Below, one piece after another: positions 319 through 12,316 of a DNA stretch of 12,316 nucleotides. Location of the stretch: contig JBHHXN010000154.1 of NCBI GenBank assembly GCA_046757025.1, forward strand, positions 1 to 12,316, read 5' to 3'. This DNA comes from a bacterium (GTDB taxonomy: Bacteria; Zhuqueibacterota; Zhuqueibacteria; Oceanimicrobiales; Oceanimicrobiaceae). The position numbers and the translations under genes are program-made. Within the stretch, counting starts at the first letter, position 1. Each line of letters opens with the position of its first letter. The notes beneath the pieces were generated by a model that saw only the letters and a list, made by a program, of their open reading frames with translations, did not search any database and was not told where the DNA came from.

Positions 319-1845
319 ATGGCGTATATTCCTGGTTTTGAATTCGATCTATTCATCAGCTACGCTCACGTCGACAATCTGGCAGATGACGACGGAGCCA
401 GGGGCTGGGTCGAACAATTTTGTAATCATTTAAACATCAAACTCACCAAGCGGTTTGGACGAGAAGGTCTGGTGAACATCTGGTGGGATTCAGCGTTGGA
501 CGGCAGCCAGCTTTTCGATAAAACCATTCAGGATAAAATAAAAGGCGCGGCTTTGTTCCTGTCGCTGCACTCAGTGGGTTATCGAGAATCAGATTATTGT
601 CAAAACGAGCTCAAATGGTTTTTTCAGAAAGCAAACCAGGAATCTTTCCGTTTGAAAATAGGCGACCGATATCGAATAATCAATGTGTTGCTGAACAACA
701 TTCACCATGACCAGTGGCCGGCTGAATACAGCCGTACCAGCGGTTTCCCCTTTCACGACGCAAAAAATGAAACGGACTTCGGCGAGCCAACCCAACCCGG
801 CAGTCAAGAATTTAAACAGCAGCTGCGCGCTTTGGTGGACGCCATTCATAAATTCATAGAATCTTTTCGAGAGCAGGCCGCCTCTGCATCATCGACTGCA
901 CAAACTGAAGCTCCCTCAGAGCCGGACGAGGCTTTTCGCGTTTTTTTAGCCGACACTTCGGACATGCGCAGAAAAACTTTTGAGCGCACTAAAAATGAAT
1001 TAGAAGCCCAGGGAGTCAAAGTGATCTGCGGAGTACCGCCGCCGTATGAAGCCGAGACACATGCGCAAACCGTCAGCGAAGAAATCAAAAACGCCCAGCT
1101 CGCCGTTCATCTTCTCGACATTTACCCTGGCCGTCCCATAGAGGGAGAAACAACCAAAAGCTATCCACAAAAACAGGTAGAGCTGGGAATCGAATACGCA
1201 AAATCGCAATTTATCTGGGTGCCCGATTCTTTCAAACTGGAAAATATCGAAGAGGACGAGCCGTACAAAAATTTTGTTACCTCACTGGAAAACGAACGTA
1301 CGGAAAAGGCGCGGTTTACTTTTGTGCAAAGCCGTCCGGACAATCTGACCCACGACATTCTGGCAAAAATCGAAGAAATTAAATTGCTAAAACAAAAACA
1401 GCAAGACCCCACCGATTCCACGGTTTTTTTAGACACTCATGAAGTGGATGAGCTTTTTTCCATTGACTTGTATAAATATTTGCGAGAGCACAAAATACGC
1501 ACCTATTTGAATCCCCAGGAAGAAGAACCCAAAAAAAATATGCACGAGTTTGAAGAGCGCTTGGAAAAAGTCAATTCACTGTTGATCATCTACGGAGAAG
1601 TCGTGAAAGACTGGGTTATCGAACGGCTGCATGCGGCGCTGGAGCTCATCAATTCGAAAAATTATCCAGTGACTTCCTACGGCATCTATCTGGCGCCTCC
1701 TAAAAAAGAAATTTCTGAGTTTCAGTTTTATGAGAAAATGCACCACGTTAAAATTTTTGACAACAGCAATGCGAAGACGTTCAATCCAAAACTTCTGGAC
1801 AACTTTCTGCAGAGTTTGTCGGCAGGAGCGGGAGGGGCAGCTTGA
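319..1845 (+). CDS. TIR-domain protein: N-terminal TIR (TIR_2-like), central DUF4062/TIR-like Rossmannoid domain, C-terminal degenerate TIR-like domain (508 aa)
   Basis: TIR box motifs FDLFISYAHVD, IWWD..LDG, and S..Y..SDYCQNELKWF (catalytic-position Glu at 607-609). Two further beta-alpha units begin RVFLAD (937) and TVFLDTHEVD (1420). ATG 319 is preferred over TTG 280 because the recognisable domain starts right after it (MAYIPGFEFDLFISY). Confidence 0.88.
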   Translation: MAYIPGFEFDLFISYAHVDNLADDDGARGWVEQFCNHLNIKLTKRFGREGLVNIWWDSALDGSQLFDKTIQDKIKGAALFLSLHSVGYRESDYCQNELKWFFQKANQESFRLKIGDRYRIINVLLNNIHHDQWPAEYSRTSGFPFHDAKNETDFGEPTQPGSQEFKQQLRALVDAIHKFIESFREQAASASSTAQTEAPSEPDEAFRVFLADTSDMRRKTFERTKNELEAQGVKVICGVPPPYEAETHAQTVSEEIKNAQLAVHLLDIYPGRPIEGETTKSYPQKQVELGIEYAKSQFIWVPDSFKLENIEEDEPYKNFVTSLENERTEKARFTFVQSRPDNLTHDILAKIEEIKLLKQKQQDPTDSTVFLDTHEVDELFSIDLYKYLREHKIRTYLNPQEEEPKKNMHEFEERLEKVNSLLIIYGEVVKDWVIERLHAALELINSKNYPVTSYGIYLAPPKKEISEFQFYEKMHHVKIFDNSNAKTFNPKLLDNFLQSLSAGAGGAA

Positions 1846-4334
1846 TGGAGAATCCTTTTGTGGGGCTGCGGCCGTTTCAAGCCAATGAAAGCCTGCTCTT
1901 TTTCGGCCGGCGTGAGCAAACCATGGAATTGCTGCAAAGACTGCACGAAACGCGTTTTCTCGCCGTGGTCGGCAGCTCTGGCAGCGGCAAATCTTCGCTC
2001 ATCCGAGCGGGATTGATTCCCAAATTAAAAGCGGGCTTTCTGGTGGACGAACGCGATAAGTGGCATTTTCTCAGTGTGATGCACCCGGGCGACAAACCGC
2101 TGCACAATCTCATTTCCGCCTTTTCCAACTTGTTAGCCGACGAGAAAAATCCGGCTTCGGTTTCCCGACTTACCGAAGAAGTTAAAATTCGCGGTGTGCA
2201 GGCCATTGTTCAAAAATTAGCGCTGTTGTTTGAAAATTCAAACAGCAATTCAAACAGCAATTTACTGTTGCTGGTAGACCAATTTGAAGAAATTTTTCGC
2301 ATCGGTTTAAAATCCGACCAGCCGGAAGTGCGGGAAGAAGCGGCTGATTTTGTAGGCATCATGCTGGGTTTGGCCAAACAGCGTAATCTGCCCATTTACG
2401 TAGTCATGACCATGCGCTCGGACTATCTCGGTGACTGCGACATTTTTTACGGCCTGCCGGAAGCCATGAATCAGAGTCAATATCTGGTGCCACGTCTCAC
2501 ACGGCAGCAGCGCCGGGAGGCCATCCAAGGACCGATCAGGTTATTTGGCCAGCAAATCACCCCGCGCTTGTTAGACAAGCTGCTGAACGCTGTAGGGGAT
2601 GAATCGGATCAATTGCCGGTGCTGCAGCACGTTCTCTTGCGCTCCTGGGAAAACTGGCAGCTAAATGGCAACGGGCCAATCGACCTTGAAAATTACCGCG
2701 CCGTGGGCACTATCGAAAACGCCCTTTCCAATCACGCGGACGAAGCTCTGCAAGGTATGAACGAACAGGAACTCAAATTAACCCGACAAATTTTTCAAGC
2801 CCTGACCGACACCGATAACAAGCAGCGGCGCATTCGGCGCCCGGCCCGCCTGAGCGAGCTGCAGGCCATCACCGGCGACAGTCTGGAAAACATCCACAAC
2901 ATCATCTCGCGATTTTGCTCTGGCAACAAATCGTTCCTGGTGTTATCCAGCCAGGATGCCTCCGGCGACGCTCTCGTGGACATCTCGCACGAAAGTTTGA
3001 TCCGCCAATGGACGACTTTGCGCAAATGGGTGGATGAGGAAGTCGATTCCGCACAAAAATATCAAGACCTCGCCAAACGCGCCGAAAAGCACCGCTATGG
3101 CGAAGCGGGATTGCTGCGCGATCCGGAACTGCAGAAAGCGCTGGAGTGGCAGCATCGACAAAATCCCACAAAAGCCTGGGCCAAACGCTACAATTACGAC
3201 TTTGAACTCACTACAAAATTTCTCAAATCGAGTATGTGGCGGGTGCGAACCATCATGTCGGTGGGATTGATACTTTTCACTCTGGCTGGATTTTTCACCC
3301 TGCAAAATGATAATACCCTCAACCATACATTTGAAAGATTGATGTTTAAAATGCTCGATCCGATTTCGGTTTCTCCAGAACTGGTGGTCGTGGAAATCGA
3401 TGCCGAATCACAGTTTTCTTTAGATCTGGAGCAAGAAACCGACCGCAAATTGTGGCGTCAGTATCATGACGACCTCATCGATTCGCTTTCCGTGCATGGG
3501 GCCAAAGCTATCGCGTTTGACATCTGTTTTTATGACACCTCGGAATACGATGCCGACCTGGCACGGGCCATCGACAACGCCAAAAAACGCGGCACCGCGG
3601 TGGTCTTCGGAGTGGGGTGCGACAGAAATGGCCCGACTACTACGCCATTGCTGACAAAAGCTTCTACCGGCATCGGCTGGACCCTGATCAAATTTGTCGA
3701 GGATAACATCAAATTCCAGGTGTTTGGCGAAAATGATACCACGTCTTTTGCCCTGCAAGTTTTCAAGCCGGGCAGCAGCAGTTCAAAATCCTTTGACATC
3801 CAACTCGATGACCAGGACTTTGCTGATATCCGTTTTATTGCCGCCAAAGACAGCTTCCCGGCGGTTCCTTATACCGATATTGTCGATGACGACGTGGTTT
3901 GGACGCTCTTTAAAAACAAACTGGTGCTGGTGGGATTTACTTTAGGCGATCTGGATTATTTCGATGCCCTTGAGATGCACGGGGTGTATATTCAGGCCAA
4001 TGCGGTGAACACCTTGCTCTCTGAGCCGAAATTGCGAACAGCCAGCATCAACCTGCAAAGAGCCGTGGTGATGGTGGTCACGCTCCTGGCATTGCTCATC
4101 TTTTTGAAAATCCGCCTACAACTAAAATGGTCAACTCCGCTCACCGCACTTTTCGTCACGGCTTTTATTAGTGCCGCTGTTTTACTATTTAATGTTAAAT
4201 TGATTTTACTGCCCATCGCGGTACCGTTATTTATGCTCATTTACACTTCTCAATTGATCAGTTTGCTCGCTTACGGAAAGCTATTACCGGGAATGACCAC
4301 TAAAAAGAGGACGAATCAAGGAGAAAATAAATAA
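1845..4334 (+). CDS. nSTAND1-family P-loop NTPase fused to TM helix, CHASE2 sensor domain and 3 TM helices (829 aa)
   Basis: NPFVGLRPF...FFGRR start, Walker A GSSGSGKSS (1971-1997), Walker B LLLLVDQFEE, TMRSDYL, LPVLQHVL and VDISHESLIRQW..LRKW are typical nSTAND1 motifs. A TM segment (IMSVGLILFTLAGFFTL) is followed by CHASE2 motifs LVVVEID, GAKAIAFDICF, D..LARAI, FKNKLVLVG and HGVYIQANAVNTLL, then three hydrophobic helices. ATG 1845 overlaps the upstream TGA, with GGAGG at 1831-1835. Confidence 0.88.
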   Translation: MENPFVGLRPFQANESLLFFGRREQTMELLQRLHETRFLAVVGSSGSGKSSLIRAGLIPKLKAGFLVDERDKWHFLSVMHPGDKPLHNLISAFSNLLADEKNPASVSRLTEEVKIRGVQAIVQKLALLFENSNSNSNSNLLLLVDQFEEIFRIGLKSDQPEVREEAADFVGIMLGLAKQRNLPIYVVMTMRSDYLGDCDIFYGLPEAMNQSQYLVPRLTRQQRREAIQGPIRLFGQQITPRLLDKLLNAVGDESDQLPVLQHVLLRSWENWQLNGNGPIDLENYRAVGTIENALSNHADEALQGMNEQELKLTRQIFQALTDTDNKQRRIRRPARLSELQAITGDSLENIHNIISRFCSGNKSFLVLSSQDASGDALVDISHESLIRQWTTLRKWVDEEVDSAQKYQDLAKRAEKHRYGEAGLLRDPELQKALEWQHRQNPTKAWAKRYNYDFELTTKFLKSSMWRVRTIMSVGLILFTLAGFFTLQNDNTLNHTFERLMFKMLDPISVSPELVVVEIDAESQFSLDLEQETDRKLWRQYHDDLIDSLSVHGAKAIAFDICFYDTSEYDADLARAIDNAKKRGTAVVFGVGCDRNGPTTTPLLTKASTGIGWTLIKFVEDNIKFQVFGENDTTSFALQVFKPGSSSSKSFDIQLDDQDFADIRFIAAKDSFPAVPYTDIVDDDVVWTLFKNKLVLVGFTLGDLDYFDALEMHGVYIQANAVNTLLSEPKLRTASINLQRAVVMVVTLLALLIFLKIRLQLKWSTPLTALFVTAFISAAVLLFNVKLILLPIAVPLFMLIYTSQLISLLAYGKLLPGMTTKKRTNQGENK
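2235..2262 (+). repeat. In-frame 12-bp tandem duplication (AATTCAAACAGC x2 + AATT) encoding NSNSNSNSN
   Basis: Exact copies at 2235-2246 and 2247-2258, read directly from the sequence. Confidence 0.9.
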
Positions 4335-4761: not shown

Positions 4762-7700
4762 ATGAAAGTGAAACTCAATCGAAGACGTATTCCATTTTTT
4801 CTAACCATCCTTTTTTTGGCAGTAAGCCAGCTTGCTTTTTCACAAAAGATTCCCGGCACCATGAAAAAGAATAGAACGAAGCTTGCACAAACTGCTGCCT
4901 CGTTGCAACCTTTCTTTCGGGTCACGGGTAGAGTGTCGGTATCGGTGGACGGCGTCGGATTTCTCGGCTCAGACAGTTTGATTCAAGTTAACAAACCACC
5001 CGGTGCCACCGTTCGCAAAGCATTTTTAGCGGCGGCAAGCACTGGCACCAGCGAACGCAAATTAAATGATGGCGACGTCGAAATAAATGGTTTTCCAGTT
5101 GAATGGGACTCCTTGCAAACAACCGTCAACAGTATATTCTCATTCAATCACCTGGCAGATGTTACCGCCATCGTTGAAGGTATCGTGGATAGCGCGTCGG
5201 CCGGTCGCATCGATTTAAGCATCACCGAAAAAATCTCAGAGGATATCGACGGCGAAATTCTGGTCGTGGTATTCGACGATGAAAACCTGCTGGAAGATAA
5301 TACCGTGATTTTATTTTTCGGAGCGCAGGATTTTGCTCCAGACGAGTTTGAAATCCAACTCGACAATCCGCTGGATTTCAGCAAACCTGAGCTGAGCTTA
5401 GAAATGGGCCTGGGCATTTCATTCAGCTTTCAAAAAGGCATCCCATCCACAATGGATCAATTCAGTACGGTCTCCGTAAACGGCAGTCTGTTAACCAGGC
5501 GCGCCGGCGGTCAGGACGACGGAAAAGGCGATAATGGCGCCCTGTTGACCGTGGGCGGTCTAGGCGATTGCGACGTCAATCCCCTTCCAAATTCCCAATC
5601 CAATCCCTCTTTTAGAGTAGATGATGAGCTCTACAATCTTAAACCGTTCGTTTCAAATGGTGAATCCGTTATCAGGGTGCAGACCATCAATCCCTCTCGT
5701 GACGACAACATTTTCTTTGCTTGGTTTTTTTTACATTTTCCCGAAGACGCGGGGGAACAAATTCTTCTGCAACCGGCGACGGCGGCAAATCCCCTGGGCG
5801 CGGAGCACACCGTCACCGCCACTGTCATCGATAAAAACGGACACGTCATCGATTGCGGAATCGTAAACATAACCGTTGTTTCCGGTCCAAATGCCGGACA
5901 GTCTGTCACCCAGGAATTAAACGAAAATGAACCAGCTTTTTTGGCTTACACCGGTCAAAAAGCCGGTACCGACAGCATTGCCGGTTATTTTGTCAACAGC
6001 CGGGGAGACACTGTTCGAGCCAAAATGGTGGCCAAAACCTGGGTGCGCGCTCCCGTGTGCGAAGTCATCATCGACTCACCGCCAAACGATGCCTTCATCT
6101 GCAAAAACAGTGTGCTCGTGACCGGCACGGTGACAGTGACGGACGGACTGCCGCCGTTCAATCAAATTTGCACCGTCAACGGCATACCAGTCTCACTGGT
6201 GGATGGGGCTTTTTCCGTCACTGTCCCGCTTATGCCCGGCGCCAACTCCATCGAAGCGGTTTGTGTGATCACCGATAGTCTCGGCAGCAGCACGCAATGC
6301 CAGGATACCATCACGGTGAAACGCAGTCCAGAATTGAACTGCTCGGTGGAAATCATTTCACCGGTTGACAGTACCACCGTCCGAACGGATAGCATCGAGG
6401 TTTCTGGTGTGATAAAAATCAATCAGGGCAGCCCGCCGTTTACTATCGCGGTGAAAGTTAACGGCTTTGCGGCCAGTCGGACAGACAGTTTGTTTCAAGT
6501 CACCGTGCCGTTAGAGCTCGGATGGAATACCCTCATCGCCAAATCCGTGGTTATCGATAGCTGCGGGAACCAGACCCTCTGCACAGACACCGTCATGGTA
6601 CGGCGAGAGCCCGGCGGAAAGGACACTTTACTTTGCAGCGTAACTATCACCGCGCCTGCTGACAACCAGCGTGTGTGTCAAGACAGCGTGCAAGTGGACG
6701 GCGTCATTCGAATCAATGGAACGGATCCGCCCTTTGCCATCGAATGCGAGGTCAACGGCGTACCGGCTGTGGTCTCCGACACCACGTTTCAAGCGATGGT
6801 TCCTTTGCAATTTAACAATAATTTGATAATCGCCACCTGCACAATCAAAGATGCAGTTGGTAGAACCGCGGTTTGCAAAGACTCCATTCAAGTTTCGCGC
6901 TTGATGCCACCGCAATGCGACGTCAAAATCGTTTCACCGCAAGACAGCACTGTGGTCACCGCAGATAGTATCGAGATCAGGGTGTTGACCAACATCGAGC
7001 AGGGTGCGCCGCCATTGGTGGTTGACTGTCAGGTGAACGGTGTGGTCGCCACGAAAATCGACTCCTTTTTTATCGCCACCGTGCCGTTGGAAATTGGCGA
7101 AAATACCATCACCGCAACCTCAACCGTTCTCGACAGTTGCGGTTTTCAATCAACTTGCAGCGACACCATCACCGTGTTTCGAGAAAGAGAACCCCTTGCC
7201 TGCCAGATCGAAATTACCACGCCAGAGGAGCAAGCGGTGGTTTGCGACAGCCTCCTGCCAGTCGCGGGCGTTGTGAAGATTATCAACGGCACGCCCCCCT
7301 TCGCCATCGAGTGCGAAATCAACAGTAACCTTGCCAGCGTGACGGACAACAATTTTAACGCCATCGTGCCGCTGACCTCGGGCGAAAACCAGATCCGCAT
7401 CAAATGCACGGTCACGGATCAGCTCGGTGCCCAGACAGTCTGTTTGGACACCGTGCAGGTTATTTTTGATGACATTCCGCCCACCTGCACATTTACCGAC
7501 GCCGGCGCGTTTGTTACCGGCACGTTCACCGATCTGGAAAGCGGTTTATTCGCCATCGAAGCGCCGCGGCTGCGGAACGCCACCCTCACTGTCGATCCGT
7601 TCACGCCCGGGCAGCAAACCGTGAGTTTTCGCATCGATGCCATCGATCCCAGCAAACCCAAAGGATTTGTTCTGGACGGCGTGGATGTTTGTGGCAACGT

Positions 7701-8355
7701 GTTCAGATGCGATCCGATTTTGTTCACCCTTTCCACCGACCAGCAAAATCGTCAGATGGAGTTGACATTTCCAGCTTTTGAGCGCTACCTCCGTATCTCT
7801 AATCACGGTCTGACGGAAATTCAAGCCACGCTCAATGGGCTCGCTTTCCTGCTTTTAACCTCGCCTTCCAAAGTCGAACAGGAGCTAAATTCGTATCTCT
7901 TGCCCCAGAATGGCGCCGTCACCATGGATCTGCAAAACCATTTGCAAAGCGGTGAAAATCATCTAAAACTCGCTTTTGCCGGTGGCGCGGGTTCAAAGGC
8001 GGATTTGATGCTCATCGACCAGGCAAACAACGTGGATTACGTTCTGGAAATCCGCACCTTGCCATCGGAATTTCATCTGGCGCAAAATTTCCCCAATCCG
8101 TTTAATCCCACAACCAAAATTCGATTTGAAATACCCGAAAGATTGACGCAAGGCACGCGTGTTCGATTGCAAATTTTCAATTTGTTGGGAGAGCGGCTGG
8201 TGACGCTGGTGGATGAGATCAAATACCCGGGCCTGTACACGGTGGAATGGGACGCCCGCGATGCCAACCAGGAGGCGGTGGCCACAGGAATTTATATCTA
8301 TCGCATGGTCGCGGAGGATTTTCAGGCCACCCGCCGGTTGATATTGTTAAAATAG
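4762..8355 (+). CDS. Large secreted/surface protein: signal peptide, uncharacterised beta-rich N-terminal domain, Big_1/invasin-like Ig domain, five Cys-rich Ig-like repeats, C-terminal FlgD-Ig/T9SS type A sorting-like tail (1197 aa)
   Basis: GGAG RBS at 4751-4754; signal peptide ending LAFS|Q; 'HTVTATVIDKNG...V.ITVVSGPNAG...YTG..AGTDSI' is Big_1-like; repeats have the pattern C.V.I.SP...PPF....VNG....F...VPL..G.N.I...D..G....C.DTI.V.R; tail FHLAQNFPNPFNPTTKIRFEIP...IFNLLGE.L.TL...WDARD....VATGIYIYRM...TRRLILLK. Confidence 0.85.
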   Translation: MKVKLNRRRIPFFLTILFLAVSQLAFSQKIPGTMKKNRTKLAQTAASLQPFFRVTGRVSVSVDGVGFLGSDSLIQVNKPPGATVRKAFLAAASTGTSERKLNDGDVEINGFPVEWDSLQTTVNSIFSFNHLADVTAIVEGIVDSASAGRIDLSITEKISEDIDGEILVVVFDDENLLEDNTVILFFGAQDFAPDEFEIQLDNPLDFSKPELSLEMGLGISFSFQKGIPSTMDQFSTVSVNGSLLTRRAGGQDDGKGDNGALLTVGGLGDCDVNPLPNSQSNPSFRVDDELYNLKPFVSNGESVIRVQTINPSRDDNIFFAWFFLHFPEDAGEQILLQPATAANPLGAEHTVTATVIDKNGHVIDCGIVNITVVSGPNAGQSVTQELNENEPAFLAYTGQKAGTDSIAGYFVNSRGDTVRAKMVAKTWVRAPVCEVIIDSPPNDAFICKNSVLVTGTVTVTDGLPPFNQICTVNGIPVSLVDGAFSVTVPLMPGANSIEAVCVITDSLGSSTQCQDTITVKRSPELNCSVEIISPVDSTTVRTDSIEVSGVIKINQGSPPFTIAVKVNGFAASRTDSLFQVTVPLELGWNTLIAKSVVIDSCGNQTLCTDTVMVRREPGGKDTLLCSVTITAPADNQRVCQDSVQVDGVIRINGTDPPFAIECEVNGVPAVVSDTTFQAMVPLQFNNNLIIATCTIKDAVGRTAVCKDSIQVSRLMPPQCDVKIVSPQDSTVVTADSIEIRVLTNIEQGAPPLVVDCQVNGVVATKIDSFFIATVPLEIGENTITATSTVLDSCGFQSTCSDTITVFREREPLACQIEITTPEEQAVVCDSLLPVAGVVKIINGTPPFAIECEINSNLASVTDNNFNAIVPLTSGENQIRIKCTVTDQLGAQTVCLDTVQVIFDDIPPTCTFTDAGAFVTGTFTDLESGLFAIEAPRLRNATLTVDPFTPGQQTVSFRIDAIDPSKPKGFVLDGVDVCGNVFRCDPILFTLSTDQQNRQMELTFPAFERYLRISNHGLTEIQATLNGLAFLLLTSPSKVEQELNSYLLPQNGAVTMDLQNHLQSGENHLKLAFAGGAGSKADLMLIDQANNVDYVLEIRTLPSEFHLAQNFPNPFNPTTKIRFEIPERLTQGTRVRLQIFNLLGERLVTLVDEIKYPGLYTVEWDARDANQEAVATGIYIYRMVAEDFQATRRLILLK
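6058..7470 (+). repeat. Five tandem ~95-aa Ig-like protein repeats, diverged at DNA level
   Basis: Repeat-initial Cys codons at 6058, 6340, 6634, 6916 and 7201, with conserved PPF/PPL, VNG, VPL and terminal C-x-D-[TS] motifs. Confidence 0.9.
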
Positions 8356-8509: not shown

Positions 8510-10339
8510 TCATCGCCGACGTTCCGCCGCATTTACATTTTCTCTAATGAAAATACGCTTTGGTGTGCGATTATTCTCCTCATCAATCTCCGCTACTGTT
8601 TCGTCCACATCCGCCTCAACCAGAATATTTTTCCAACCAGCCAAACCAGTGGGAATGGTGATTCGCAGAGAATCTCGCAGGAGGCCTTCAAATTGCAAAT
8701 CCTGAGTATGGATAGCGCTGCTTTTCGCTAAGAAGATGGGAATCACGCCGATGGTGTCCGCAGAAGAGGTGATGGAGAGCTGTTCGCGGTAGGTCTCCAT
8801 GACGGTGTTGCGGCCGATATTTTTCACTTCCCAGCTCACCCAGATTTCCTCACCCGCAAAAGCCGAATCCGGCGCAGAGACGTTCACGATCACCAGATCT
8901 TTTTCCGTGAAAATGTCGATAGGCTGTGTTGCAAGGTTATTATTTTCATCCTGTTCGGGGACTCTGTCATCCGCATCCACCTGTATGATCAGGAAATACG
9001 CACCCGGTGTCAGTGTGTCCGGAAAAGGGACCTCTGCAGAAGCGTCATGCGTTTGCCCAGTCGCTAACGGCGACGTGTGCTCAAATTGCTCGAGCAACAG
9101 GGCATTGGAAACGGATTCCTTGGCGCCGAGCCAGATTCGGTCAATAAAATTCTCCGAAGTGGATCGAGTTCCCTGATTCTGCAGGCGCCAATCGATGACC
9201 ACCGTTTCACCCACACGAATGGAATCCGGCGCCTGCAATTTCTGTACCACCAGATCGGACCGTTGTGGTGGTTCGATCGAAATCATCCGCGAACCCTGAT
9301 TGTTGGTCGTGTCTTGTTCCAAAACCGAATTCTCCACATTGGTTTTGACCAAAAGGTAGTGTGGTCCCGGAACCAACCCTTCCGGCAACGCCACTTTCAG
9401 GGTCACCGAGCTGGACAGGCTCGATGGCAAACCCTGCGGATGCACAAATCGAGCGAGTCCTCTGGCGCCGTTGAACGAATCCCTGTCGTTGATCCAGAGT
9501 GAATCGGTAAAACTCCCTGAGATCTCTTTGGCGCTGGCATTTTTAACTTGCCAACTGATAGTCAGAGAATCGCTTAGCTGCAACGAGGGCGGAGCGTCAA
9601 TTTGTAAAAGCTGCAGGTCGAAAATGGTTTCTGCGGCTTTTTTGACTTCATTGCTGGCGGCGAACAAGCCGGTTGAATCAAACACAAAAATTTTGTAGAA
9701 ATAATCGATTTCCGGCAAAATAGAGTCGTCCAGAAATTCGGTGTCGCTGTTCAAACTGGATGCAAACATCAGGTCGGAATTGAAATCGACGCCAGCCTGC
9801 TCACTGCGAAACAAGCGGTACGCAGCGAAATCTGTATCGTGGTTCGAAGTCCAGGATAAAGTCACGGAAGTGCGCGTTGCGGCTTTGATGGCCAGCTCAA
9901 TTGCTGAGGGCTTTTTCGATTGCAGCTCAATATTGACTTCGAAACCGTCGTTCAGGGTGTTCACGGTATCGGCGCCGCAATAGGTAATCTGGCCGGTTTC
10001 GTTAAAGGCATTTGCAAAAAAGATGCGGTTGCGACCCTGGCTCACTTCAACCGTGCCGGTCGCAATGGAATCGGCGAGGGTCAGCTCCTTGGTGATCTTC
10101 TCGAAATTTTCAGCTTCATCCAGAGCGGTTACGTCCAAAGTCACTCTGGTAATCGCAGCAAAGGTCGCTTTTTTAGGATGTTGCAGGCTCGCTGGTATTT
10201 CGATTTCCAGATTCACCAGCACTTTGCTTCCCGAATCTGTGGGATTGCCCGAAAAACATGAAGCAAAAAATGATGACCACAGCGCTGCGAAAACTGCACT
10301 ACCAGCCGCCCGCAGCAGGCGTTTATGATAACATCTCAT
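8510..10339 (-). CDS. Lipoprotein with N-terminal beta-sandwich, fibronectin type III domain and three CARDB-like Ig domains (609 aa)
   Basis: Basic n-region plus lipobox FFAS|C; FN3 motifs VTLSWT..DFAAYRLFRS...YFYKIFVFD..G..AASN; three units DL.....AP.S...G....I.W.V.N.G ending EQDTTNN / EQDENNN / EIDEENN. Confidence 0.82.
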   Translation of the reverse strand: MRCYHKRLLRAAGSAVFAALWSSFFASCFSGNPTDSGSKVLVNLEIEIPASLQHPKKATFAAITRVTLDVTALDEAENFEKITKELTLADSIATGTVEVSQGRNRIFFANAFNETGQITYCGADTVNTLNDGFEVNIELQSKKPSAIELAIKAATRTSVTLSWTSNHDTDFAAYRLFRSEQAGVDFNSDLMFASSLNSDTEFLDDSILPEIDYFYKIFVFDSTGLFAASNEVKKAAETIFDLQLLQIDAPPSLQLSDSLTISWQVKNASAKEISGSFTDSLWINDRDSFNGARGLARFVHPQGLPSSLSSSVTLKVALPEGLVPGPHYLLVKTNVENSVLEQDTTNNQGSRMISIEPPQRSDLVVQKLQAPDSIRVGETVVIDWRLQNQGTRSTSENFIDRIWLGAKESVSNALLLEQFEHTSPLATGQTHDASAEVPFPDTLTPGAYFLIIQVDADDRVPEQDENNNLATQPIDIFTEKDLVIVNVSAPDSAFAGEEIWVSWEVKNIGRNTVMETYREQLSITSSADTIGVIPIFLAKSSAIHTQDLQFEGLLRDSLRITIPTGLAGWKNILVEADVDETVAEIDEENNRTPKRIFIRENVNAAERRR

Positions 10340-10353
10340 GATTTTGATTGAAT

Positions 10354-11127
10354 TTAATTTTCCTCGGGTAACTTGATTTTAACGGTTCCAGTAACCGTTT
10401 TATTGGGGCGGTCGATTATCAACGGCGAAGTGAGCGCGATGACAGGTGGAATCAGGCAGACCCAGCAAAAACCGCCATCCAGTGGATTGGTCCATATTTT
10501 CATATTTGAAACAATCGAGGCAAAATAAGTCGGGTCGGGATTAAACGCCGGTACCGAGGTGCCGCTGACAAAAGCCGCGGTATTAGCGCCCACCAAAATC
10601 GTACTATCAGAGGCCGTAAATTTAACCGTCCCATTGATAACCAAAAGTTCAGTGGTATCCTTTTCCGGGAAATAGCGCATCAACAATTCTGTGCCAGGCA
10701 CGCCAGCCGAAGTGGTATTCGTTTCGATATAATATTCACCAGCGCCGGCCCGCTTTCTTTTATTCATGAAAATCTCGCCTTTTTCCAATTTAATTTTGTT
10801 ATTGACAAGGATGGTGATCGTGGTATTTTCGTTGATTTTCACATATCGATCGTTGCCGAATTTTAATTTCACGCTCACATCTTTTTTTGTGATCACCTGG
10901 TCGTCTTTAATAAGTTTAACTTTTTTCTTTAAGAGAAATTCCTGTGGATTCAATCCACTCCGTAAAACCTTACCGTGTTCAAAAGTAGGCTTTTTCAATG
11001 TTTTATTTTTATTATTTTTAAAAACATTGACTTTTAAAATCTCACCAACCACAGGTTGTTGGCACCATCCCGCTGTTGAGAAAGTATGGAGAAAAAATAC
11101 CAAACCAATTAAGTGCAATTTATTCAT
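10354..11127 (-). CDS. Exported FecR-domain protein with C-terminal hydrophobic segment (257 aa)
   Basis: ATG 11127 is preceded by AAAGGT and gives a signal peptide MNKLHLIGLVFFLHTFSTAGWC-QQ, so it is preferred over the ORF-track start at 11196. FecR motifs: DDQVIT...VKLKFGND..VKINENT, IKLEKGEIF, IETNTTSAGVPGTEL, TELLVINGTVKF. The 14-bp gap to the lipoprotein gene implies an operon. Confidence 0.8.
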   Translation of the reverse strand: MNKLHLIGLVFFLHTFSTAGWCQQPVVGEILKVNVFKNNKNKTLKKPTFEHGKVLRSGLNPQEFLLKKKVKLIKDDQVITKKDVSVKLKFGNDRYVKINENTTITILVNNKIKLEKGEIFMNKRKRAGAGEYYIETNTTSAGVPGTELLMRYFPEKDTTELLVINGTVKFTASDSTILVGANTAAFVSGTSVPAFNPDPTYFASIVSNMKIWTNPLDGGFCWVCLIPPVIALTSPLIIDRPNKTVTGTVKIKLPEEN

Positions 11128-11514
11128 AAAAACCTTTAATTTTTCACGGTTTGACGTTAGTTTCAAGACACTTTTCTTGAAGCTGGAAAAATACAACGTG
11201 AAATGTCTCTAATGCAGTTATTGATAAACCGAATGATGTATTCAGGAAAGGAATTAAGCGTTATCAATAAATCGGATAAAAAGGTAACACTTCTGGTTTT
11301 AAAAAGCAATTATTTTTTCAGAAATCACATACTGCCAACGCCCTTTCATTCGTTCGGGAAGGCACAGTTTTTACTTTATTTTACAAACTGGATTATTTAT
11401 ATTTATGTTCACACACAATAAACCATTTCACGAATCAAAATAAAAGTGAGCCGAATCATCTTTCCGCAAATTATCGAAGGATGAACTCTGTGCACCACAC
11501 AAAGGGAGGGAAAC

Positions 11515-12316
11515 GTGCGTTTTTATAAACAATATTTCTTGATCTTATTTAGTCTGTTAGCCGTTTCGCCGGGCTGCAAAAAATCAGCGGATACGCAAAA
11601 CCAAAACGCCGCTGGCCAGGAGTCCATCAAATCCGACGCCAAAGCGCTGGCGGTGGTGGATGAAATGTGGCAGGCCCTGGGGGGAAAACAGAATTGGCAG
11701 AATACGCGTTATCTGAGTTTTCATTGGAAGGCGGAAAGAGATGGCAATCTGGTTGCGCACTACCGCCACGACTGGGACCGTCACACCAATCGCTATCGGG
11801 TGGAGGGCACCGACCGGCAGGGTCGGCATTTTGTGGCGTTGTTCGACACCAAGACCAAACTTGGCGATGTGTACTTAAAGGGTTCGAAAATGCCAGAGGA
11901 CTCCACCAAAATTCAGATGCTGGAACGCGCTTACCAGCGGTTCATCAACGACAGCTACTGGCTCATCATGCCGTACAAACTCAACGACCCGGGCGTGATT
12001 TTGAAATACGGGGGGGAACGCCAGGTGGCGGAAAAAACTTACGACGTTATTGAGATCACGTTCGAGAACGTCGGGCTCACACCCGGTGACACCTACTGGG
12101 CTTTCATCGACAAAGCCGACCGCCTGATGCACAAATGGGAGTACGTGCTGCAAAATCGCCAGCCACCGCCCACCGTGGTCTGGTGGCAAGACTGGCAGAG
12201 TTTTGACGGCATTAAGCTGGCGTTAAACCGAAAAATTGAAAACCGCCCGGCGCGAATTTATTTTGAAGATGTCAAAGTATCTACTCTGGTGGACGAAGCG
12301 GTTTTTCAGATGACGA
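11515..12316 (+). CDS. Lipoprotein, DUF6503/LolA-fold-like family, truncated by the window edge
   Basis: Absent from the ORF track because there is no stop in the window. Translated by hand: GGGAGG RBS, GTG 11515, MRFYKQYFLILFSLLAVSPG|CKKS..., SDAKALAVVDEMWQALGGKQNW, HDWDRHTNRYRVE, FINDSYWLIMPYKLNDPGVILKY, FENVGLTPGDTYW. The frame is open to 12316. Confidence 0.8.
   Translation, partial: MRFYKQYFLILFSLLAVSPGCKKSADTQNQNAAGQESIKSDAKALAVVDEMWQALGGKQNWQNTRYLSFHWKAERDGNLVAHYRHDWDRHTNRYRVEGTDRQGRHFVALFDTKTKLGDVYLKGSKMPEDSTKIQMLERAYQRFINDSYWLIMPYKLNDPGVILKYGGERQVAEKTYDVIEITFENVGLTPGDTYWAFIDKADRLMHKWEYVLQNRQPPPTVVWWQDWQSFDGIKLALNRKIENRPARIYFEDVKVSTLVDEAVFQMT

Follow-up and report, generated by a model that had tools for sequence, protein, structure and literature searches.

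The 12,316-nucleotide stretch of DNA analysed here (the window), a metagenome-type contig, carries a TIR-protein gene (gene 1, 319..1845, + strand) followed directly by an nSTAND1 receptor gene (gene 2, 1845..4334, +), and this gene pair is a conserved two-gene module. The reading that we favour, and hold to be somewhat probable, is that the gene 2 product is a membrane-spanning STAND-CHASE2 receptor with a docked cytoplasmic TIR partner, which likely cleaves NAD+ when the receptor is switched on, as an envelope-alarm response.

Gene Junction and Conservation of the Gene Pair

The stop codon of gene 1 (TGA, 1843-1845) and the start codon of gene 2 (ATG, 1845-1847) overlap as TGATG (1843..1847, +), and a ribosome-binding-site-like GGAGG (1831..1835, +) lies within the 3' end of gene 1, 9 nt ahead of the ATG, as a preliminary description of this DNA had stated. 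Among 135 adjacent homologous pairs, 99 showed an overlap of some kind, 84 of them as ATGA and 9 as TGATG (93 in either form), and the gene overlap therefore exceeds chance. The stop/start overlap suggests that translation of gene 2 may be coupled to that of gene 1. Promoter and terminator scans gave results at about chance level.

Conservation of the neighbourhood had been proposed as a test of the pairing, and it was found to be strong. A single-protein scan of GTDB genomes returned no relatives, and an alignment scan found them. We examined 159 loci for which the TIR protein was the sole selection criterion. They comprise the best 80 of 433 and 79 of at least 371 confirmed stretches, a set biased to close kin. 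An effector-less nSTAND1 gene was located within 130 nt downstream in 135 loci, further away in 2 and absent in 3, and 19 loci were uninformative; the genes are thus adjacent in 135 of the 140 informative loci. In independent searches of 167 genomes of the phylum, the TIR gene was detected in 15 and the STAND gene (E<=1e-30) in 14, all of them within those 15. The distribution is patchy (15/167), and only 1 of 20 other genomes of the window's own family has the TIR gene. Pairwise distances of the two proteins were correlated (r 0.85 for 47 pairs, 0/2000 permutations), a value that kinship inflates. The gene pair is also found in the isolates Aequorivita antarctica SW49, Robiginitalea myxolifaciens DSM 21019 and Ulvibacter antarcticus DSM 23424.

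These data bear on a very improbable reading, which we strongly disfavour, that a single fused gene was split artefactually in assembly, or that the genes are co-transcribed with no contact between their products. The metagenomic type of the contig and the existence of fused relatives (see below) would fit an artefact. However, the junction sequence was the same in contigs from 4 of 4 runs (from a single study, three of them possibly the window's own source), and every one of the 137 loci that have both genes carries them separately, with none fused (0/137). The version without contact is opposed by a specific docking model that passes its controls, as described below.

Domain Architecture of Gene 1

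Gene 1 had been regarded as a stand-alone TIR gene, which was not confirmed. From the ORF list, Pfam and AF2, its product, of 508 aa counted from the ATG at which homologs start, consists of three alpha/beta domains (AF2 mean pLDDT 87), namely a TIR domain, a pseudo-NIR domain and a docking tail; a hydropathy scan detected no hydrophobic segment in it. Domain 1 (319..903, +) matches Pfam TIR_2 above the cut-off. It also matches FxsC_Nterm weakly and below the cut-off (NF040588, 40 bits versus a cut-off of 130), as do all 46 of 46 gene 1 homologs, with a best E of 4e-14. The putative catalytic Glu97 (codon GAG, 607-609, +, the position given in the preliminary description) is intact in the window, and was conserved in 80/80 homologs and in 105 of the 110 representatives with a residue at that position. 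The TIR fold together with this conserved Glu fits an enzymatic TIR domain, which would likely cleave NAD+.

Domain 2 (925..1404, +) is DUF4062/NIR-like according to hhalign and Atlas. Compared with 11 DUF4062 sequences it gave an hhalign value of 82% (E 1e-5, 139 columns), and its homolog G037:C129 scores above the PF13271 cut-off; the domain 2 sequence of the window copy alone gave no Pfam match. In the alignment to DUF4062, the column of the catalytic Glu is occupied by Gln286 (1174-1176, +), and the same replacement by Gln was found in 78/80 homologs and 142/150 representatives. An NIR effector has been inactivated experimentally by an E-to-Q change (10.64898/2026.09.04.749371). Domain 2 is predicted to be an inactive pseudo-NADase.

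Domain 3 (1408..1830, +) has a flavodoxin/TIR/receiver-like fold and provides the main predicted contact with the STAND protein. In fold comparison, TIR, receiver and B12-binding folds were tied at Z 12-13, with no single fold standing out. H374, D377, G426 and R436 are invariant. A profile of domains 2 and 3 found no match among PDB sequences, and hhalign detected no link among domains 1, 2 and 3.

Gene 2 Encodes an nSTAND1 Protein with a CHASE2 Sensor

According to Pfam and hydropathy, the gene 2 product (829 aa) is composed of nSTAND1, a predicted transmembrane segment, CHASE2 and hydrophobic helices. The nSTAND1 NTPase domain (PF20703, 1854..3092, +; E 1.4e-95) spans residues 4-416 and profile positions 1-371 of 379, with 321.6 bits versus a cut-off of 27.1. 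This match, together with intact Walker A and Walker B motifs (K49, codon 1989-1991, +; D145, codon 2277-2279, +; each invariant in 80/80), assigns the protein to the nSTAND1 clade. As the preliminary description had recognized, the protein opens directly at the NTPase motif (MENPFVGLRPF), with no N-terminal effector. There is no room for an EAD adaptor ahead of its NTPase, and no Pfam EAD family match was obtained. In 133 of 135 STAND partners the PF/YxG motif lies at most 35 residues from the start.

The membrane anchor that had been proposed is likewise predicted, by a hydropathy scan only. The first transmembrane helix (residues 469-487; 3249..3305, +) scores 1.75 in the window copy, near the threshold, and a hydrophobic segment after the ATPase was found by the same type of scan in 80 of 82 complete STAND partners. 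It is followed by a CHASE2 domain (3294..4094, +; Pfam E 4.8e-23), a sensor predicted to be extracytoplasmic, which the preliminary description had missed. Behind CHASE2 there are two clear, probably three, hydrophobic helices (4062..4271, +), and the protein ends about 20 residues past the last hydrophobic run, without a kinase or cyclase. In this hydropathy-derived topology, CHASE2 has one membrane helix on its N-terminal side and several on its C-terminal side, as in CHASE2 receptors.

Predicted Docking of Gene 1 on the STAND ATPase

Complex prediction for the gene 1 product and the STAND protein gave an ipSAE of 0.78, as compared with 0.00 for the best control. Of 157 solved complexes, 116 attain the mark used, as do 2 of 215 mismatched pairs, a calibration that is roughly valid with our own alignments. 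The runs shared at least 91% of contacts, with a partner pLDDT of at least 82. In the 1:1 model, domain 3 lies, together with the last part of domain 2, on the N-terminal and lid surfaces of the ATPase, and the TIR domain is outside the interface. It is thus predicted that gene 1 docks on the STAND ATPase through its C-terminal domain. The earlier proposal that the STAND protein recruits the TIR protein in trans is supported by this model as regards docking, but not as regards the TIR domain as the contact. Interface columns were somewhat more conserved than the rest of the proteins (0.64 vs 0.55 and 0.71 vs 0.66), and inter-protein MI-APC over 80 pairs gave noise, with 0 of the 30 top pairs at the interface. 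Since it specifies which residues of either protein form the interface, the model is directly testable.

Since the complex was modelled as a ligand-free 1:1 pair, recruitment on activation and pre-docking look alike in it. One reading of a pre-docked pair, which we consider improbable, is a toxin-antitoxin or guard arrangement, in which the STAND protein at rest keeps an otherwise active TIR protein silent on the membrane until activation or damage frees it, with no clustering. A confident 1:1 complex predicted ligand-free, the 1:1 synthesis suggested by the stop/start overlap and the rarity of homologs without an adjacent STAND gene (3/140 informative loci) are consistent with it. On the other hand, the TIR domain lies outside the predicted interface, TIR and NIR NADases are described as activated by assembly (10.64898/2026.05.01.722283), and in-frame fusions, if real, would be unable to free the TIR domain.

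Variable Sensors, Fused Forms and Effector Exchange

Variable C-termini on the STAND homologs had been anticipated, and we found that the C-terminal sensors are swappable among the 82 complete partners; they include M15 peptidase, TonB_C and pYEATS, with CHASE2 in the window. In G037 and G058 the pair is interrupted by YkuD genes, and in G156 a YkuD gene immediately precedes the STAND gene. Fused proteins of the order TIR-D2-D3-nSTAND1, with a short linker behind domain 3, are P0177, P0242 and P0203, and P0230 is a deleted fused form. These four were found by an HMM search, among the top 150 representatives; an earlier word search for long fused forms, insensitive as compared with the HMM search, gave P0018 alone. 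Each of the four is a single-contig, single-member cluster, and they could be assembly errors. SIR2 fills the N-terminal effector slot in P0264, and TIR domains of other lineages fill it in P0226 and P0248, which suggests NAD+ chemistry. In G069:C109 the module is fused behind ParA-TIR, inside a TIR / ParA operon, and further ParA-fused relatives are P0070, P0123 and L238.

On the minus strand of the window, a FecR-domain exported protein (10354..11196, -) and a CARDB-domain protein with a lipobox-like N-terminus by sequence inspection (8510..10339, -) were identified by Pfam. Of 167 phylum genomes, the same two have the CHASE2 lineage of gene 2 and the FecR-domain gene, at the same two loci, on two distant STAND lineages (compared by a quick tree and an AU test of 22 rows). 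The second copy of this CHASE2 lineage on a STAND protein is in G048, where a CARDB homolog directly adjoins the STAND-CHASE2 gene. A first search for CHASE2-STAND relatives had returned only the query itself and one cyclase; a later search found G048, so the first was insensitive. The FecR-domain protein is a probable partner of the CHASE2 sensor, and the CARDB protein a probable accessory of the CHASE2 variant.

Genomic Context and Proposed Mechanism

A PADLOC check of the surroundings had also been suggested. At E<=1e-15, 6 of 150 neighbouring proteins matched (162 picked, first 400 aa, a raw count without a control set), and the classical defence-island context is thus weak. Searches of 72,556 plasmids and 50,697 phages gave no match to the module. 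Among 79 loci with flanks compared, the largest recurrent neighbour families reached 8 loci, and there was no conserved third gene able to read a messenger.

This context is relevant to a rather unlikely but substantial alternative, that the same docked receptor is non-lethal, with the TIR domain making an ADPR-derived messenger or acting only as a scaffold in response to a routine envelope cue, as with CHASE2 cyclases and kinases. The few known defence genes nearby, the absence from the plasmids and phages searched, the M15 peptidase, TonB_C and pYEATS sensors, and the YkuD genes all favour it, and CHASE2 with a FecR-domain partner is an ordinary signalling layout in print (PMC5192318; NsrA/CyaK, PMC13001267). 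However, a third gene to read the messenger is lacking among the flanks compared, the patchy distribution (15/167 in the phylum, 1/20 in the own family) and rapid sensor turnover resemble those of conflict systems, and the effector slot can hold SIR2.

In the envelope-alarm response that we favour, the STAND ATPase would span the inner membrane with CHASE2 outside, and the cytoplasmic gene 1 product would be docked on the ATPase via domain 3 and the last part of domain 2. By analogy with Avs/NLR biology, an envelope cue, likely passed on via the FecR-domain and CARDB proteins, would reach CHASE2 and cause nucleotide exchange and oligomerisation of the STAND protein. The docked TIR domains might thereby be clustered to form an active NADase, the dead NIR domain serving as a spacer or as a surface for assembly. 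NAD+ would then likely be depleted and the cell would stop growing or die, as a conflict response. If true, a split membrane-spanning STAND would bring envelope cues under STAND immunity. As a broader hypothesis, which we put forward tentatively with a little less than even confidence, bacterial NLR-like receptors that span the membrane and have their sensors outside the cytoplasm may be widespread, with a dedicated adaptor (dead NIR plus docking domain) on the ATPase that accepts any N-terminal effector (TIR, SIR2, ParA-TIR) without fusion; in the window, a whole CHASE2/FecR/lipoprotein input would have been captured and moved between two distant STAND lineages. The split STAND/TIR pair, if true, would be a bacterial parallel of receptor-adaptor logic.

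Comparison with Known Systems

Like Thoeris, in which ThsB is a separately encoded TIR protein with a catalytic Glu, the module has a separate TIR with such a Glu in gene 1, which weakly matches ThsB1 (E 1.3e-5) and ThcB4 (best E 0.002). Unlike Thoeris, the partner of gene 1 is a STAND receptor, and none of the six main ORFs of the window, in which 318 nt of contig precede gene 1, is a ThsA-type effector gene.

No description of a split TIR/nSTAND1 pair was found among the papers searched; the nearest systems in print are nSTAND1/EAD and TIR-ParA systems. For nSTAND1-centred systems, a neighbouring-gene effector such as TIR has been proposed to be recruited in trans, and in the nSTAND1-EAD systems one small adaptor, EAD/bDLD, is present as a copy on either partner (Kaur, Iyer, Burroughs, Aravind, eLife 2021, PMC8195603). 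The module shares with these the NTPase clade, variable C-terminal sensors and an effector on a neighbouring gene. It differs in that its STAND protein is without an N-terminal adaptor, heterotypic docking onto the ATPase being predicted via the pseudo-NIR and the flavodoxin-fold tail, and in its near-universal transmembrane segment. TIR-ParA systems of the FxsC/FxsT type (Li, Burroughs, Aravind, bioRxiv 10.64898/2026.10.19.760177) similarly have an active-type TIR gene upstream of an NTPase-sensor gene, contain extra inactive TIR-fold domains and include nSTAND1 and receptor-like transmembrane subtypes. In contrast, gene 2 has no ParA domain by Pfam, and NCBIfam matches to gene 1 up to E 1 include no FxsC C-terminal models. 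The main text of that preprint mentions ParA-less versions solely where TIR is fused directly to STAND, with no split pair, and DUF4062 is absent from it.

Avs proteins are described as single tripartite polypeptides sensing phage proteins in the cytoplasm (10.64898/2026.09.04.749371; Avs5, PMC12931631). With Avs/PsAvs2 the module shares a STAND switch with NAD+-cleaving TIR-fold output (predicted here) and the presence of an NIR domain. Its effector is instead a separate protein, its NIR lacks the Glu and its sensor lies beyond a predicted membrane helix. Membership in Avs/AVAST was rejected as nSTAND1 begins at residue 4 and 0/137 loci are fused, although rare fused relatives exist; PADLOC 2.0 at E<=0.01 gave no match to Avs profiles, only P-loop-level matches to mad3/mad8. 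EACC1 systems were also set aside, as in these the 5' gene encodes a small TM protein and a caspase is the constant enzyme (PMC7159879).

CHASE2 occurs with a FecR-domain or outer-membrane partner in Burkholderia BiofilmReg (PMC5192318), and S. meliloti CyaD1/D2/K are CHASE2 receptors described with NsrA, which pairs with CyaK (PMC13001267). The module resembles these in its TM-CHASE2-multi-TM topology and linked FecR-domain exported protein. The output of CHASE2 receptors is normally a C-terminal kinase or cyclase, whereas here a STAND ATPase at the N-terminus, together with its TIR partner, would provide it, and the protein has no further domain after its last helices. CHASE2 ligands are listed as unknown in PMC5192318 (2016), and the CHASE2 version of the module could supply a simple NAD+ read-out to find them.

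The TIR Gene and the nSTAND1 Gene Form a Conserved Pair

The two long co-directional ORFs, gene 1 (319-1845, + strand, 508 aa) and gene 2 (1845-4334, + strand, 829 aa), meet in a TGATG overlap at 1843-1847, preceded by GGAGG at 1831-1835, which confirms the overlap and the RBS-like motif of the preliminary description. In gene 1, Pfam detected TIR_2 (residues 12-126), and in gene 2 both nSTAND1 (residues 4-416, E 1e-95) and CHASE2 (residues 484-750, E 5e-23); the STAND is, as had been proposed, effector-less and starts at its NTPase. Both genes are single-copy in the genome, and the junction was unchanged in contigs from four runs (one study, possibly the source). It is very improbable that the junction or the split is an artefact. 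The STAND gene also carries a 12-nt direct duplication (2235-2262, encoding SNSNSNSN) just before Walker B, which was missing from contigs of two of the four runs and thus represents an in-frame length polymorphism.

We examined 159 loci chosen by the TIR protein alone: 80 were the best among 433 genome stretches, and the other 79 came from metagenome stretches, of which there were at least 371. The nSTAND1 gene started no more than 130 nt from the end of the TIR gene in 135 of them, lay farther off in two and was not found in three, and 19 loci ended before its position could be read. Fused TIR-nSTAND1 occurred in none of the 137 loci in which both were found. The stop and start codons of the 135 adjacent pairs share ATGA in 84 cases and TGATG in nine. 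The hosts were Bacteroidota, Acidobacteriota, Calditrichota, Desulfobacteraceae and Gammaproteobacteria. When 167 genomes of the window's phylum were searched separately, gene 1 turned up in 15 genomes; gene 2 (E ≤ 1e-30) was detected in 14, each of which also has gene 1. Their 19 distinct STAND genes were located directly after the TIR gene (12), after it with one or two short genes between (three; YkuD in two), at contig ends (two) or after another ORF (one), and one was an ordinary fused TIR-STAND (33% identity). All of these counts, and the cluster counts given below, include kin and so are not made up of independent cases. The anticipated neighbourhood conservation was thus found, and the TIR/STAND pair is a conserved module.

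Gene 1 Encodes Three Alpha/Beta Domains

Gene 1 had been regarded as a stand-alone TIR; this view had to be revised, as AlphaFold2 (46 homologs, mean pLDDT 87) yielded three alpha/beta domains. Domain 1 resembles TIR structures in structure comparison, and its Glu97 is kept in 80/80 homologs. Domain 2 is DUF4062-like by Atlas features and in a profile alignment with 11 DUF4062 sequences (82%, E 1e-5, 139 columns), and that of the homolog in genome G037 exceeds the PF13271 cut-off. In 78 of 80 homologs, the column of the conserved DUF4062 Glu is occupied by Gln (Gln286). DUF4062 has recently been shown to act as an NADase, and an E-to-Q change abolishes its defence function (10.64898/2026.09.04.749371, 10.64898/2026.05.01.722283). 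With Gln286 in place of the conserved Glu, domain 2 is predicted to be a pseudo-enzyme. Glu is retained at 286 in a few homologs (loci L164 and L178; cluster representatives P0141, P0209, P0219, P0238 and P0258), several of which keep Glu97 too, and domain 2 may be active in this minority. The fold of domain 3 is of the flavodoxin type; TIR, receiver and B12-binding domains match it equally well (Z 12-13), and H374, D377, G426 and R436 are invariant.

Predicted Docking and the Effector Slot

When gene 1 was modelled in complex with STAND residues 1-465, ipSAE was 0.78, and the highest-scoring of three controls had 0.00; 116 of 157 solved complexes reach this mark, as do 2 of 215 mismatched pairs, a calibration only roughly valid with our own alignments. 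Contact agreement between runs was at least 91%, and partner pLDDT at least 82. On the gene 1 side, the confident predicted interface comprises residues 374-376, 402-411 and 428-448 of domain 3 together with the last part of domain 2; on the STAND side, it comprises residues 16-34, 59-73 and 219-251. The proposed association of the TIR protein with the STAND in trans is supported as predicted physical docking, with the TIR domain itself outside the confident interface. The domain 2-3 profile had no match among solved structures, making recall of a similar complex less likely. Interface columns were modestly more conserved, and mutual information between the proteins contributed no support for the interface.

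Among clusters formed at 50% identity, 1,109 matched the domain 2-3 profile at E ≤ 1e-10, and 292 did so at E ≤ 1e-30. Among the top 150 representatives, three have domain 3 joined in frame to nSTAND1 by a short linker, and a fourth fused form carries an internal deletion; as every one is a single-contig record, they constitute support, not proof, of a domain 3-nSTAND1 link. The slot before domains 2-3 holds this TIR in 110 of the 150, and in two more with extensions; 32 are short or fragmentary, and the slot can also be taken by SIR2, a different TIR, ParA or an unnamed domain. In P0212 and P0261, domains 2-3 are attached to long N-terminal regions without a Pfam match, which we take to resemble components of MoxR-vWA ternary conflict systems.

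STAND Partners and Their Sensors

Among 82 non-redundant complete STAND partners (of 91 longer than 500 aa), Pfam (E ≤ 1e-5) detected WD40 in 30, TPR in five, pYEATS and pentapeptide repeats in four each, M15 peptidase in three, and Lcl_C, LRR, CHAT and TonB_C in one each, with no match in 32. Walker A and Walker B residues are invariant in 80/80 partners, and a hydrophobic 19-mer follows the ATPase in 80 of 82 (hydropathy only). These data bear out the variable C-termini expected of the STAND and support its membrane anchoring as a prediction, in keeping with a receptor that has exchangeable sensors. YkuD L,D-transpeptidase-family genes lie between the TIR and STAND genes at L004:572-1348 (G037) and L224:2960-3724 (G058), and in G156 such a gene (L223:1-276) immediately precedes the STAND; an M15 peptidase domain ends three Blastocatellia STANDs. 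Together, the YkuD genes and M15 domains suggest a peptidoglycan link.

The CHASE2 Copy and Its Neighbours

CHASE2, the sensor of the window's STAND, was found in none of the 82 surveyed partners. A second TIR/STAND-CHASE2 pair, 38% identical over the full length, occurs in genome G048, which belongs to the same class but a different family. Both pairs are oriented towards opposite-strand FecR-domain and CARDB genes (10354-11196 and 8510-10339 in the window). Signalling units in which a CHASE2 receptor has a FecR-domain or outer-membrane partner are known (PMC5192318, PMC13001267). In the 167 genomes, searches detected both this FecR protein and this CHASE2 lineage at these two loci and nowhere else. 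A long branch with 100% SH-aLRT support separates the two ATPases (quick tree, 47 rows), and their placement in one clade was rejected (AU test, 22 of the 47 rows, p 2e-6). The simplest reading is that the CHASE2/FecR/CARDB input moved between STAND lineages, in a direction that two cases do not give; its ancestral retention in both lineages is a possible alternative.

In the window, between the pair and the CARDB/FecR genes lies a gene (4762-8355) for an exported 1,197-aa Ig-repeat protein with Glucodextran_B repeats and a FlgD/Por-like tail; the tail matches more than 100 contigs of the genome, with a close paralog on C182. An exported, lipoprotein-like ORF without a Pfam match (11515-12316) is cut by the contig end. 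The genome's sole other CHASE2 protein (L236:1423-3552, contig C13) is a conventional CHASE2-cyclase with no similarity to the STAND CHASE2 detectable by tblastn.

Relation to Known Systems and Possible Mode of Action

The module would work like an NLR/Avs protein, but its effector is not fused, which sets it outside Avs; its STAND bears no adaptor, unlike EAD systems, and the window's module has no ParA, unlike TIR-ParA. At L238:1829-5412 (G069:C109), the chain TIR / ParA-TIR-TIR-pseudoNIR-D3 / nSTAND1, overlapping at both gene junctions, nests the module inside a TIR-ParA system. The TIR-ParA preprint describes ParA-less forms, in its text, only as fusions (10.64898/2026.10.19.760177). The module is real and conserved, and the split form was not described in the literature searched; the figures and supplements of that preprint, outside the search, might show the pair.

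We consider it most likely, with somewhat better than even confidence, that an envelope cue would switch the membrane STAND, which would oligomerise and cluster the docked TIR domains into an NADase, causing cell arrest; both activation and output are drawn from Avs and TIR biology. The classical defence context is weak: PADLOC matched few neighbours (6 of 150: three patatins, two helicase-like and one DEDDh, with no control set) and the module had no match among plasmid or phage records, both of which count against a classical anti-phage role. A non-lethal signalling role has perhaps one chance in four, and a hold-and-release guard is more doubtful still. Neighbours recurring in five to eight loci (flanks of L027-L185) include patatin, with a PADLOC match in three, and putative SLATT-like, caspase-like and deoxyribosyltransferase-TPR proteins.
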